Below are positions 37,595-43,740 of a DNA stretch of 64,000 nt, one piece after another. Made by a program: the position numbers and the translations under genes. This DNA comes from an uncultured Candidatus Saccharibacteria bacterium (lineage in GTDB: Bacteria > Patescibacteriota > Minisyncoccia > Phycocordibacterales > UBA9973). The notes under the pieces were generated by a model that did no database searches, was not told where the DNA came from, and saw only the letters and a program-made list of their open reading frames with translations. How positions within the stretch are numbered: the first letter of the stretch is position 1; each line of letters opens with the position of its first letter. Where the stretch lies: NCBI GenBank assembly GCA_964527235.1, contig CAZGNC010000001.1:83220-147219 (forward strand), in the 5' to 3' direction.

Positions 37595-37926
37595 CCTGTT
37601 AGAAGTTAAAATTAAATTATAATACCCAAACAATTCTCGTTATTGAAATTTGTAACGGGATTTATGTTAAAATTATATCATACAATATGAAATTTTTCTT
37701 AATTTTTGTTATTTTCTTGGTCTTGCTTGCAGTTTTGGTTTTTGTGTTGCGTAAAACCAAAAATCAGACAAAAATCGGCGACGATTTTGAGATTCTGGAG
37801 TAGTAATTTCGACAAGTTAGGGCACTGAACTTTTCGGTGTAATTTTTCGCGTAAAAAGTTATGCACAACTGTTGAAAAACCCTATATTGCAAAAGAAAAA
37901 TATGCTAAAATTAACTTGTTACACTA

Positions 37927-40900
37927 ATGAAATTAAGTAACAAAAAATTGAGCGGGAAAAAGGGTCCTAGAATGCTTTTCGGCGTTCAGGTTTTTTTCAT
38001 AACTTTTGCTCTAATTTTAAATTTATTTTTCACAAGTTTTGCTAACGCTACTGCTGGCGTTCCTCTAGTCATAAATTTTCAAGGACGATTGATGGATAAT
38101 GCGGGTGATCTTTTGGGTGGACCTTCTGGAACAGACTATTGTTATAAATTTTCTATTTATGACGCTACCACTGGAGGATCTAAAATTTGGCCGACAGGTT
38201 CTCCTTCGACTATGACCATCGTAACTCGTGAAGGAGTCTTCGATGCAAGTATCGGAGATACTGGTGCTGGAGGCGATGCGTTGGATTTAGCTTTCACTGA
38301 CGACCAGGCATATGTAAATGTTGAAGTTGCAGCTAAGGTGGGTGGCTCATGTACTACAGGTGGTGATGAAGTTTTCGAAACTCTATCACCTCGTCCGAGA
38401 ATTGTTTCTTCGGCTTTCGCTATAAATTCTAAAACTGTTGGAGGATTCACTCCAGCGCAATCCGCAACCAACAACCAGATTCCAGTTCTAACTTCTGGTT
38501 CACTTATACTTAGTCACGCAACTACTGCTGGTATAACCTCGTCAGGCGCAAACCCTCTTGCAGTAGATGCCGGTGCTTCTGGGGTATTAAATATTAACGG
38601 AACTTCAACAGGAGACATTCTAATCGGTGGAGGTTCTGGTTCTACTGGTTGTACGATTACTAACTCCTCTGGAGCATTTGCTTGTTCTGCTGGTATCTCG
38701 GGTACTACTGGCACTTTCTCAGGAGCCATCGCTGCTAACGGAGGCATCACATTCGACGCATCTACCGACACCATCGGAGCATTCACTGCAGCAGGGACGA
38801 TCGACATGAATGCAAACATCATTACCAACATCGGTAATGCTGGCACAGACTTCACAGCAACAGGAGGCTTAACATTAGACGACATACTCACAGTTAATGA
38901 CGACCTTACTGTTGCACTTTCAGGAAATGAGAACGTAGAGATTACTGATGGAGCTACTCCAACAACAGACATATTAAGCATCATAGCTGATGGAGCTTCA
39001 ATCACTAATGATGCTAACGCTTTAGAAATTGACTTTACCACAGGTGACGGAGCTAACGTAACTCAATCAGGATTACAGATTGATCTAGCTTCTGGAGGTA
39101 CTGCTTCTGGAGATACCATCTACGGTATCCATTTAACCATGGATGCAGCCGATGCTTCAACCCAAGACGCAATTTTCGTAAATGGTAACTTCGATACTAT
39201 CCTCGGTGGTACGACTGCTGGCACTTCAATATTCGACTTCACCAACTTCGATGTTACTTCTGCGGGAGCTATTTCTGGACTTAGTTTAGATCTTACAAGT
39301 GCAACACAAGCGACGATTAACCTAACTGATAGTGGTGACACATCTGGTCTTGGTATTATTAACTTTAAAGGAGGAGCTACTACAAGATTTCAAATACTTG
39401 GTAGAAACGATGTAACTACCGGCAATACTTTAACTTTCACCGATGGAACCAATGAACTTGTAAGAATTACCGACAATGGTCGTGTGGGTATCGGATCAAC
39501 TGACCCTGAAGACCTCCTCGAAGTTCAAGGAGCCGAAGCCACAGATTCAGTGTTAGTACTTGATGCTGACGATGGTGATGATGCTGCTGACACATGGTTT
39601 GTAAAATCTGTTGCTACAAGTAACTCTCTTTCAATACTAAATGATGTCACAGAAAGATTCGCTTTAACTTCTGCAGGGAATCTTCAGTTTGATGGAACAC
39701 TTACCTCAGGCTCCGGCAACACCGTCCTCACTCTCTCTACCGGTATGATTGATGCAGATGCACTTACTCTAACAACAGCCGCAGACGGAGGTACAGGTAC
39801 TTCTTCAGGCTCAGGACTTATTGTAAGAAGTGATGGTATAGGATTACTACAAGGTTGTACTGATGGACAAGTGCTGGCATGGGTAGAGTCTACTGATACT
39901 TGGGATTGTGCGACAGCGAGTGGAGGAGTATCTGACGGAGACAAGGGAGATGTAACAGTTTCGGGTTCTGGGGCAACCTGGACTGTGGACTATACTTCTT
40001 CTGATGGAGTAGGTGGCACCTCAACATCTGGGGGGCTCGAACAAGGCACAGGAGGCATAGGATTATTACAGGGTTGTGCTGATAATGAAATTTTGAAATG
40101 GAATGATGGCACTTCTGTCTGGGCGTGTGCTACTGACGCTACATCTGCTGGTGCTGGAGTTTCTACAATTCAAGAAGGAGATAGCACCATAGAAGGTTCA
40201 GCTTCGACTATAGATTTCTTAGCTGCTGATTTTACAGTTACAAGTTCTCCAGCCGGTGAAGCGAACATAGTAATTGATTACACAAACTCAGGAATAACTC
40301 GAAACAGCCAGAACGAAGCAATAACTGGTGACTGGGGCTTTACTTTAGGAGCGGGAGAGGCTATAGATTTTGTTGCTGGGGCTGCGCCAACTGTAGACAT
40401 GGTAGAAATTGGAAATACTGGTCAAGGGACCACTACTACTGGCGTTGATGGATTAGAAATAAATTTCGTAACAGCAGCGGTGGCTGGTTCAGTAGAGAAC
40501 TCTGCTTTAGAGATTATCCTTGATCCTTCAGGAGCCACAGAAGCAGGAGATCAAGTTAATGCTGTTGACATAGCCAACATAACCAATCCAACAGGGCTAA
40601 CTACAGGAGTGAGAGTTGGTAGTGGGTACGATGTCGGTATCGCTTTCAGGGATTCTGCTGGAGATTATGTAGGATTTAAAGCTCCTGCAGATGTAACAAC
40701 AACTACGACTTGGACACTACCAGCTGCGGATGCTGCGGGATGTTTTAAATCTGATGGCTCTGGAAACATGTCTATAAGTTCTTGCGGTGATACTAAGGTT
40801 CAGGTCTATGATTCCAACACTACTTATACAGTTCCCGCTGATGCTCAGATGATAATAATTGAAGCTATCGGTGGAGGAGGATCTGGAGGTGGTGGTGCGC

Positions 40901-43740
40901 TTGGCAACATTGCTCAGGTTGCGGGTGGAGGAGGTGGAGGAGGTGGAGCTTACTACCTTGGAACTTTCGCAGTGAGTGATCTAGGAGGAGCAAACTCAGT
41001 GCTCCAGATTACAAGAGGTGCAGGAGGATCTTCTCCTAACTTAACAGTTGATGGTAACTCAGGAGGAGCGAGCTGTGTTTCTACATCTTCTTCTTGTGGA
41101 GGTACTGTTTATCATCGAGCTTACGGCGGTGGCGGTGGATCGGCTTCAGCTAACAACACTGCAAACGGTGGCGGTGGAGGTGGTGGAGGAGGAGGTGCTA
41201 CAAGTGCTGGTAACAATGCTGCTGCGGCGAACCGTGTCGGAGGTACAGGAGGTCTGCCGGGTCCTGCTGCTGTGGGTATTGCCTCCGATGGACTTGGAGG
41301 AGGAGGAGGAGCGACTGGAGCCGGAACTGGTGCCGATGGAGGTAACTCAGGCTGGGGAGGTGCAGGAGGAGGAGCGTCATCTACAAACGGTGCTGCGACA
41401 ACTGGACGTGGAGGTAACTCAGCGCGTGGAGGTGCGGGTGGCGGAGGTGGTGCTTCCTGTACGATTTCACCTTGTACTACTGCACGTGTCGGGCAGATTG
41501 GAGGATCTGGCGGAAATGGACAATTTGCTGGAGGTGCTGGAGGTACTGCTCCTGGAGGAGATGGATCAGCGGGAACAAATGCCGCTGCGAATAGTGCATT
41601 TGGAGGAGGTGGAGGAGGTGGAGGAGGTTCTAACCAGGCAGCTTCTGGTGTCCCAGGAGATGGAGGTGCAGGAGGTGTTCCTGGCGGAGGAGGTGGAGGA
41701 GGTGGAACAGCGATTAACAACACTGCCTGTGCTGCCAATTGTCAGGGTACAGGAGGAGCCGGAGGTAATGGGCGCGTGAGAATCACTACTCTACGTGGAG
41801 CCGGAGCAGACTTGGCTGAAATGTATGCCACAAATGACGACGAACTTAAGGCGGGTGATGTTGTTGCGTTAGATCCAGAACTTAAGGCGGGTGTTAAAAA
41901 GACAACTAGGGCTTATGATCCAAACGTGATTGGTGTTATTTCCACGGATCCAGGAATTACTATAGGTAACATTGACCAAGATCCTACCGCTCGTCCAGTG
42001 TTGCTTGCCCTAGCGGGTCGTGTGCCGGTGAAAGTAAGTATGGAAAACGGACCTATTAATCCGGGAGATTTATTGACACCTTCTTCTGTGCCTGGAGTTG
42101 CGATGAAGTCTACTAAAGCAGGAATTATTATAGGGCAAGCTCTTACCAAATTTGATCAATCGATAGTAGACCTAGGTGACGCACCACACCCCACAGGATA
42201 TTTGATGATGTTTATAAAAAATAGCTATGCTAATGGAAGTACATTAGCTCAAGTAATACCAGGCCTAGAGTTATCTGACGGTCCGCCAATTGCCACAGAA
42301 GAAGATAATAATATTCCAAGTGAAAATGATGCTGGTGTTGCAAACAGCGAAGCCGATACTGATCCACCAGAATCAGAAGAGGGTTCTACAGAGCTTCCAA
42401 TACCAGAAGTGACTGCGAAAAATGATGTTGGAATTTTTGCTCTTAAATATTTCATGGATAAAAAGGGCGAACTAAGCGAGTCTGTAAGCTTCTCTGAAGT
42501 TATGGCAGACAGAGTTAGTGCTGGACTTGAAGTTATTACTCCTACTCTAACTGCAGACACTGTTCGAACTAACACGATAACCACTTCAACGGGTAAAGAT
42601 ATAAATTTGGTTTTGGGCCCAGATGGTAAGTTTGTAATTGGAGGATCTTCTGAGGTCACTACTAATGAAGACGGCTCAACTTCGACCATAGAGACAGAAC
42701 CACCGGTGATCACCTTTGACTCTCTAGGTAATGCTATATTTGCAGGCAAAATTACCGCTAATGAAATTTCTATAAATTCTGTAGAGGGGATTCAGTCGAT
42801 AATCGCGCAGTTGTCTCAATTAAGCCAAGGTCAAGCTGGACTCACATTAACTGCGTCTGCTCTCGATGCGCTTACTTTAGCCTTAGAAGAGAGTAAGAAT
42901 AAAATTCTTGGTTTAGAGACCACAACCACAGACCTAGCGACTCGACTTGGAGTTATTGAAGTAATGTTGAATGCAAATGCTTTCGATGCACTGACCTCTC
43001 TCACTACTGGCAACTTAGCAGTGTCGGGAGACAGTACTTACACAGGGCAAGCACAATTTGACGGACTTTCATTCTTCAATAACGAAGCGAAGTTTAGTGG
43101 CTTGGTAACTTTTGATCAAGAAGTTGAATTTAAAGCCCCACCATTGTTTAATAAAGATACTGCTGGGTTCGCTCTTATTCATGAGGGAGACAGGAGAGTT
43201 AGCGTGACTTTTGACAAACCTTATGTTATGACTCCTATAGTGAATGTTAGTATGTCGTTTGAGACTACAGACAACATAGATGATGTCTCTGCGATGTCGC
43301 TCTTTGACTCAGATATACGTTTTGTTACTTTAGACAAAAGTAATACAGGGTTCACCATACTTTTGAATCAAAATGCACCTATGAATATTAGGTTTTCGTG
43401 GATAGCATTAGGGGTACGTGATCCTAAGATTATAGAGAGTATTGCTGAAGGTTTAGTTATTAATCCTCCCGAGACAAACGATGACACTATCCCAATTCCA
43501 ATACCTGTACCCAACAATAACCCTGCACCAAGTCCCGAAGTTGTACCATTAGAGAATCCTTCTGGTGGTGTGGAGATACCTCCTACCGGAGACACAACAG
43601 GAGGCGTGATTGAAGACTCTACTTCTACGGAGGAGATTGTACCCGAGCCTGAGCCTGAAGTTGAAGATTCAAGTGAGCCTCCCGCGCCAGAGTCGTCTGC
43701 GGACTCGAGTAGTCCTGATGGTGGAAGCACTGCACCATAG
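37927..43740 (+). CDS. 1937-aa giant Gly/Thr-rich fibrous cell-surface protein (tail-fibre-like adhesin architecture)
   Basis: N-terminal TM/signal. Gly/Thr-rich repeats. Duplicated GLLQGCTDGQVLAWVESTDTWDCAT / GLLQGCADNEILKWNDGTSVWACAT motifs. Poly-Gly tracts. A coiled-coil segment. Pro-rich C-terminus. Confidence 0.6.
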   Translation: MKLSNKKLSGKKGPRMLFGVQVFFITFALILNLFFTSFANATAGVPLVINFQGRLMDNAGDLLGGPSGTDYCYKFSIYDATTGGSKIWPTGSPSTMTIVTREGVFDASIGDTGAGGDALDLAFTDDQAYVNVEVAAKVGGSCTTGGDEVFETLSPRPRIVSSAFAINSKTVGGFTPAQSATNNQIPVLTSGSLILSHATTAGITSSGANPLAVDAGASGVLNINGTSTGDILIGGGSGSTGCTITNSSGAFACSAGISGTTGTFSGAIAANGGITFDASTDTIGAFTAAGTIDMNANIITNIGNAGTDFTATGGLTLDDILTVNDDLTVALSGNENVEITDGATPTTDILSIIADGASITNDANALEIDFTTGDGANVTQSGLQIDLASGGTASGDTIYGIHLTMDAADASTQDAIFVNGNFDTILGGTTAGTSIFDFTNFDVTSAGAISGLSLDLTSATQATINLTDSGDTSGLGIINFKGGATTRFQILGRNDVTTGNTLTFTDGTNELVRITDNGRVGIGSTDPEDLLEVQGAEATDSVLVLDADDGDDAADTWFVKSVATSNSLSILNDVTERFALTSAGNLQFDGTLTSGSGNTVLTLSTGMIDADALTLTTAADGGTGTSSGSGLIVRSDGIGLLQGCTDGQVLAWVESTDTWDCATASGGVSDGDKGDVTVSGSGATWTVDYTSSDGVGGTSTSGGLEQGTGGIGLLQGCADNEILKWNDGTSVWACATDATSAGAGVSTIQEGDSTIEGSASTIDFLAADFTVTSSPAGEANIVIDYTNSGITRNSQNEAITGDWGFTLGAGEAIDFVAGAAPTVDMVEIGNTGQGTTTTGVDGLEINFVTAAVAGSVENSALEIILDPSGATEAGDQVNAVDIANITNPTGLTTGVRVGSGYDVGIAFRDSAGDYVGFKAPADVTTTTTWTLPAADAAGCFKSDGSGNMSISSCGDTKVQVYDSNTTYTVPADAQMIIIEAIGGGGSGGGGALGNIAQVAGGGGGGGGAYYLGTFAVSDLGGANSVLQITRGAGGSSPNLTVDGNSGGASCVSTSSSCGGTVYHRAYGGGGGSASANNTANGGGGGGGGGGATSAGNNAAAANRVGGTGGLPGPAAVGIASDGLGGGGGATGAGTGADGGNSGWGGAGGGASSTNGAATTGRGGNSARGGAGGGGGASCTISPCTTARVGQIGGSGGNGQFAGGAGGTAPGGDGSAGTNAAANSAFGGGGGGGGGSNQAASGVPGDGGAGGVPGGGGGGGGTAINNTACAANCQGTGGAGGNGRVRITTLRGAGADLAEMYATNDDELKAGDVVALDPELKAGVKKTTRAYDPNVIGVISTDPGITIGNIDQDPTARPVLLALAGRVPVKVSMENGPINPGDLLTPSSVPGVAMKSTKAGIIIGQALTKFDQSIVDLGDAPHPTGYLMMFIKNSYANGSTLAQVIPGLELSDGPPIATEEDNNIPSENDAGVANSEADTDPPESEEGSTELPIPEVTAKNDVGIFALKYFMDKKGELSESVSFSEVMADRVSAGLEVITPTLTADTVRTNTITTSTGKDINLVLGPDGKFVIGGSSEVTTNEDGSTSTIETEPPVITFDSLGNAIFAGKITANEISINSVEGIQSIIAQLSQLSQGQAGLTLTASALDALTLALEESKNKILGLETTTTDLATRLGVIEVMLNANAFDALTSLTTGNLAVSGDSTYTGQAQFDGLSFFNNEAKFSGLVTFDQEVEFKAPPLFNKDTAGFALIHEGDRRVSVTFDKPYVMTPIVNVSMSFETTDNIDDVSAMSLFDSDIRFVTLDKSNTGFTILLNQNAPMNIRFSWIALGVRDPKIIESIAEGLVINPPETNDDTIPIPIPVPNNNPAPSPEVVPLENPSGGVEIPPTGDTTGGVIEDSTSTEEIVPEPEPEVEDSSEPPAPESSADSSSPDGGSTAP

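Follow-up and report, generated by a model that had tools for sequence, protein, structure and literature searches.

The open reading frame at 37927..43740 on the + strand of the window (the whole stretch of DNA that was analysed, 64,000 nucleotides) raises the question of whether a long protein with parts of the phage tail-fibre type belongs to a virus or to the cell that carries it, and what it might do there. We propose, with a probability of roughly 60%, that it is a modular, fibre-shaped surface protein of Patescibacteria, exported by the Sec route and made of parts of that type.

Chromosomal setting and family architecture

The frame has an ATG start and is uninterrupted, and the encoded protein is 100% identical to an existing NCBI entry, on a 259,673-bp contig. 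The 1937-residue product is intact and, as the preliminary description stated, Gly/Thr-rich (Gly 16.1%, Thr 11.3%, Ala 10.7%, Ser 8.8%); its 16 cysteines fall into eight close pairs, every one of them N-terminal of residue 1273. Whole-protein searches returned nothing from NCBIfam, only a sub-threshold Gly_rich_2 from Pfam, and only a poly-Gly artefact from PDB sequences, and searching the PDB with a profile of the family alignment gave no match at E ≤ 1. A scan of the window revealed no paralogs and no long internal repeats, with TRF reporting short arrays only.

The gene is surrounded by DnaE, GAPDH, HisRS, a split transketolase, pfkB, RNase P RNA and rml genes, with a glycan-synthesis cluster (GT2, RmlA, RmlB) on its 3' side; this is the setting of a normal Patescibacteria chromosome and not that of a prophage. 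The order tktN-tktC-pfkB(-)-fibre is partly retained in related genomes, where as many as 18 of the 80 loci compared carry one or more of the three genes upstream, and a beta-lactamase-family gene has a match in nine of the 80. An adjacent gene for a 1153-aa SH3/Ig protein had been proposed to form a host-attachment apparatus with the fibre protein. This partnership was rejected: homologs of the 1153-aa protein occur in 0 of the 80 loci, and the pfkB kinase gene, on the opposite strand, sits between the two genes. In the syntenic loci inspected (L027 and L012) tktC adjoins pfkB directly, and the 1153-aa gene is therefore read as an insertion in the present lineage. A 38-aa open reading frame lies upstream of the fibre gene (37687-37803).

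The fibre protein belongs to a very large, unnamed family that is found essentially in Patescibacteria alone and counts over 17,000 sequence clusters (17,706 representatives at E ≤ 1e-3; 6,714 at E ≤ 1e-10). Its N-terminal domain was located at 231 loci in GTDB species genomes, the best 80 of which are patescibacterial. The N-domain, a variable middle and a C-terminal module (315–554 aa across homologs) are all present in 74 of 119 homologs. Same-locus orthologs are 63–76% identical in the N-domain, 29–44% in a chaperone-like domain and 38–57% in a lectin domain, with little to no similarity in the middle region, which in ten such orthologs consists of unrelated sequence of 428–2533 aa. What defines the family is conservation at both the N and the C end around a middle that is swapped, and the domains identified below take their places within this architecture of fixed ends and exchangeable centre. 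A literature search did not find the N-domain/G2-like/H-lectin architecture described for Patescibacteria.

N-terminal half and glycine-rich domain

The chain begins with a predicted Sec-type signal peptide (residues 1–41; 37927..38049, +) comprising a K/R-rich n-region, a 21-residue hydrophobic core and an A-N-A|T motif, at which the fibre protein would be cleaved. Conservation among homologs begins at (T/A)-A/T-G-V/I-P (here TAGVP), and the preceding residue is always Ala in the homologs displayed. The hydrophobic N-terminus that had been described as an anchor is present, but it resembles a cleavable signal peptide rather than a membrane anchor. The conserved N-domain that follows (residues 42–200; 38050..38526, +) contains the invariant Cys72 and Cys142 and serves as the family marker, occurring in 97 of the 119 homologs at 27–86% identity. 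It has no Pfam or PDB sequence match, and an N-domain profile search against the PDB gave nothing credible; it is presumably the cell-proximal attachment module. No LPXTG, SLH or C-terminal transmembrane segment was found in the fibre protein, nor the combination of LPXTG, hydrophobic segment and positive tail that marks a sortase-anchored adhesin.

The next ~750 residues (201–955; 38527..40791, +) form a variable Gly/Thr/Asp-rich fibrous region that is unalignable between orthologs, is covered by few homologs and has no Pfam match. Within it lie two copies of a Cys module (GIGLLQGC...W.CAT), the first (GIGLLQGCTDGQVLAWVESTDTWDCAT) at residues 637–663 with Cys644 and Cys661 (39835..39915, +) and the second (GIGLLQGCADNEILKWNDGTSVWACAT) at residues 710–736 with Cys717 and Cys734 (40054..40134, +), identical at 16 of 27 residues. 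The duplication was noted in the preliminary description, and the module recurs in the family: one to four copies, at varying positions, are found in 45 of 263 proteins compared, nearly all of them family members.

Residues 956–1290 (40792..41796, +) were assigned by profile, alignment and fold to a TNF-like beta-sandwich with a glycine-rich polyglycine-II bundle (Pfam Gly_rich_2, PF21722). The isolated segment reaches 25.3 bits (cutoff 24.3), covering profile positions 4–220 of 226; the score falls to 18.8 bits with the whole protein as query. The segment can be aligned over its full length with 16 relatives, ten of which carry a precomputed PF21722 assignment, and its glycine runs match the glycine-rich motifs of PF21722 relatives column for column. 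An AF2 model of the domain (pTM 0.72) points to a TNF-like sandwich with a Gly-rich bundle, and Foldseek relates it to the Bxb1 tail tip (9d93_Qa/Qb; E 1e-6 to 2e-6, target TM ≤ 0.66), the Pam3 fibre (7yfw_a; E 3e-3) and the ALK GRD (E 0.03–0.1). Pam3 gp24, gp38 of Salmonella phage S16, Bxb1 gp33/gp29 and the ALK/LTK GRD likewise have a TNF-like sandwich extending Gly-rich motifs (PMC9608196; PMC13243192), and the glycine content is similar, at 34–40% per 100-residue window over residues 1001–1300 compared with 39% in Pam3. Unlike the Pam3, S16, Bxb1 and ALK domains, the present one is larger (~335 aa), contains three Cys pairs and is part of a cellular rather than a virion protein. The domain is C-terminal in the aligned relatives, the top-scoring of which (P0121) lies within a phage structural module (terminase, capsid, sheath initiator). 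Here, in contrast to the phage relatives, it is not C-terminal, unless the chain is cut at A1294|D1295.

The gp12-type domain and the C-terminal region

The region immediately after the glycine-rich domain (residues 1291–1440; 41797..42246, +) was assigned from its model and from hhalign as a phi29-gp12-type (Peptidase_G2-like, beta-tulip-like) domain, a putative auto-chaperone and trimerisation unit. It is modelled at a pLDDT of ~90 with the fold of the gp12 C-terminal fragment; its best Foldseek match is the Pam3 cement protein, and hhalign pairs it with gp12 681–854 at 87% probability, placing ADLAEMY on SDFAEYF. Residues 643–854 of gp12 constitute PF11962, to which gp12 itself scores 325 bits; no PF11962 match was obtained with the whole fibre protein, the segment (E ≤ 5) or six family domains (E ≤ 10). 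The earlier suggestion to test for intramolecular-chaperone (S74) families proved fruitful, and the domain it led to is of the phi29 gp12 (Peptidase_G2) type, not S74. S74 (PF13884, the endosialidase type with a Ser-Lys site) had no match in the 1937-aa protein and was rejected; one homolog has it (P0096, residues 431–481), between that protein's two ends.

The motif D1295-L-A-E1298 (41809..41820, +) aligns with gp12 D692-F-A-E695, just past the gp12 cleavage site, and the conserved cleavage-site residues (gp12 S691|D692-F-A-E695) are, on alignment, present as A1294|D1295-L-A-E1298. The D, A and E do not vary in either set of aligned homologs (58 and 39 sequences), and the pattern D-x-A-E-x-[YFWH] is found in 109 of 127 representative matches, 16 of the 18 misses being short proteins (323–751 aa). 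The candidate cut would leave ...TTLRGAGA before it and DLAEMYATNDDELK after it. In gp12, D692 and E695 are taken to be the catalytic residues. Residue 691 is the last of mature gp12 (PMC6542822), and the C-domain acts as an auto-chaperone that gp12 cannot do without (PMC6542822, PMC3357383, PMC4690869). Whereas in phages chaperones of the gp12 type occupy the extreme C-terminus, as in gp12 itself (PF11962; 3GQH/3SUC), here the domain is internal and residues 1441–1937 come after it; because these ~500 residues of stalk, lectin-fold domain and tail follow, cleavage would not necessarily release it. Furthermore, gp12 is the pre-neck appendage (tailspike) of Bacillus phage phi29, whereas the family domain lies in a cellular, secreted protein, for which cleavage is predicted.

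The closest phage sequence relative of the chaperone-like domain is gp359 of the jumbo Pseudomonas phage PA5oct, a 478-aa virion structural protein encoded beside a long-tail-fibre gene; its last 134 residues, where the domain is C-terminal, start with ADLAERY and are 42% identical to the present domain over 133 aa. The fold is also shared by beta-tulip capsid decoration/cement trimers (Pam3 gp6, TW1 gp56, HFTV1, XM1 gp53) and the base of the phi29 head-fibre protein gp8.5. Unlike the decoration proteins the present domain has no capsid context, and because of the D-x-A-E motif it is considered closer to gp12 than to them. By this likeness the fibre protein may trimerise through the domain and may cleave itself.

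An acidic linker of low model confidence (residues 1441–1498; 42247..42420, +; pLDDT <50), whose length varies among homologs, leads to a stalk (residues 1499–1743; 42421..43155, +; pLDDT 50–80) of helices and beta-hairpin repeats, which carries a conserved TDR..AGLE.ITP motif and, at approximately residues 1622–1682, three helices forming a coiled-coil-like segment. The stalk is followed by an H-type-lectin-fold domain (residues 1744–1834; 43156..43428, +) modelled at pLDDT >90. The models, which are monomers with mean pLDDT values of 72 and 68 and with the stalk at low confidence, bear out the helical segment and globular C-terminal domain of the preliminary description. Residues 1744–1834 adopt the H-lectin beta-sandwich, with Foldseek probabilities of 1.0 to SLL-2, HPA (Helix pomatia agglutinin), HAA and discoidin II. 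Unlike H-type lectins the domain is sub-threshold in Pfam (H_lectin, PF09458; 17.8–19.2 bits, under the cutoff of 24); ten of 14 family domains match H_lectin at E ≤ 0.01, homolog P0097 reaches 26.4 bits, and P0012 is named an H-type lectin domain protein by NCBI. The fold is shared with HPA, SLL-2 and discoidin I/II and, again at the far C-terminal end of a fibre, with the lectin tips of R-pyocin fibres and tailspikes; these relatives suggest that the domain may bind glycans. In an alignment made by eye with the HPA sequence, the sugar-binding Trp, His and Tyr of HPA are apparently not kept. The protein ends in a Pro/Glu/Ser-rich acidic tail (residues 1835–1937, with the stop codon; 43429..43740, +) that terminates in ...SPDGGSTAP and is 0–128 aa long in homologs. 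Overall, the fibre/adhesin architecture claimed at the outset is largely borne out, with Gly-rich, chaperone-like and lectin-fold domains matching parts of phage fibres, tailspikes and pyocins.

Proposed organisation and alternative explanations

We propose that the N-domain would fix the fibre at the cell envelope, from which the species-specific fibrous middle would extend outward to end in the TNF-like polyglycine-II domain, a domain of the type that forms the receptor-binding tips of phages Pam3 and S16. The gp12-type domain right after this tip would most likely act as the nucleus from which the fibre trimerises and folds, as phage tailspikes do, and, bearing the A|D-L-A-E sequence, may cut its own chain there. 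A short helical and beta-stranded stalk would then lead to the H-type-lectin-fold tip, which is probably glycan-binding.

For three of the domains the best structural or sequence relatives are phage fibre, tailspike and decoration proteins, and the top Gly-rich relative comes from a phage structural module, as would be expected if the gene encoded the receptor-binding protein of a virion, that is, a phage, prophage or tailocin fibre residing in the chromosome. This origin is very improbable given that the gene is flanked by housekeeping and glycan-synthesis genes and by none of phage type, that neither the fibre protein nor its neighbour has a PHROG match, that the N-domain and middle found no match in 50,697 phage records, that up to 18 related species genomes retain the tkt-pfkB-fibre slot, and that the protein carries a Sec signal peptide, for which a virion protein has no need. 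A cellular protein might instead be a component of the envelope, of S-layer type, with its ends tied into the wall and its middle diversifying against phages or hosts, rather than an adhesin that binds hosts. A hypervariable exposed middle between conserved ends is the classic pattern of surface layers and antigenic variation, the Thr/Ser-rich sequence could be glycosylated, the GT2, RmlA and RmlB cluster lies downstream, and 46 of 80 related contigs end within the fibre gene, fitting population heterogeneity. The recognisable domains, however, are binding and fibre modules (polyglycine-II tip, H-lectin fold) rather than lattice-forming ones, no SLH or S-layer Pfam domain was matched in the fibre protein, and the N-domain occurs twice in at least one genome (L019 and L025, both in MAG_26); we therefore regard an S-layer role as unlikely, and a fibre-shaped surface protein remains the preferred reading.

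Two further alternatives concern individual parts of the protein. The DNA at 40860-41760 had been described as near-pure GGN repeats, prone to slippage and potentially phase- or length-variable, and short perfect in-frame repeats such as (GGA)5 and 9-mers repeated two to three times do occur there, which would favour a contingency tract for on/off or length switching. GGN accounts, however, for only 118 of 301 codons (39%), with GGA, GGT and GGC mixed and a longest run of ten codons. The longest perfect repeats are (GGA)5 (15 nt) and a 9-mer present three times (27 nt), alongside one G6 homopolymer, and no long perfect repeat that could shift the frame or promoter spacing was found in the tract. 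Because no perfect repeat exceeds 27 nt and all repeat units are multiples of three and in frame, which makes a frame switch impossible, the phase-variable reading fails, and little credence can be given to a slippage switch: the glycine tracts are structural, encoding motifs of a folded domain that align with PF21722 and fold into a polyglycine-II-type domain with Bxb1, Pam3 and ALK counterparts. Less easily set aside is a permanent trimerisation node, in which the gp12-like domain is never cleaved and the lectin-fold domain is the distal tip of a single chain. The fold is equally common to non-cleaving trimeric decoration proteins and to the gp8.5 base, which is followed, as here, by a coiled-coil stem (PMC9942802), the domain is internal rather than terminal, and the P22 tailspike retains its auto-chaperone (PMC3357383). 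Against this stand an invariant D-x-A-E exactly at the gp12 cut position and, abutting the motif, a Gly-rich domain that is C-terminal in all phage relatives; an uncleaved chain is accordingly a possibility of some substance, though we do not favour it.

On a bolder and improbable reading, the gp12-type C-module cleaves itself and the product is in effect a polyprotein: the cell-bound fibre would acquire the polyglycine-II domain as a new C-terminal tip, as in phage fibres, and a second, small trimeric fibre (beta-tulip base, coiled coil, H-lectin tip) would be released or held non-covalently. The family, of over 6,000 clusters, would on this reading be the main determinant of host specificity in Patescibacteria and would evolve by swapping middle cassettes while its ends and chromosomal locus stay fixed, and cells would have adopted the assembly and host-range system of phage tail fibres. 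Should none of the proposed steps hold, an ordinary large hypothetical surface protein would remain.

Apart from type IV pili and a handful of adhesins of cultivated Saccharibacteria, little is known, to our knowledge, of how the ultrasmall Patescibacteria find and hold their hosts. The fibre family is a good candidate for host recognition in Patescibacteria, since fixed ends, an exchangeable middle, a receptor-binding tip and an auto-chaperone both of phage type, the latter with its cleavage motif intact, and a lectin-fold tip are what would be expected of a host-range determinant. It offers concrete handles: a single bond predicted to be cleaved, a pair of domains that are candidates for binding, and a syntenic locus with orthologs that differ only in the middle. 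It also widens the range of two viral building blocks, the phi29-gp12 type of auto-chaperone and the polyglycine-II bundle (the latter also present in ALK), to include surface proteins of cells. The giant surface proteins proposed as host adhesins in ultrasmall CPR episymbionts, such as those of Vampirococcus lugosii and the essential adhesins of Southlakia epibionticum, are similarly large, exported and lineage-specific, but the domains reported for them are others, namely VCBS, fn3, dockerin, PKD and integrin (PMC8080830, PMC10633639).

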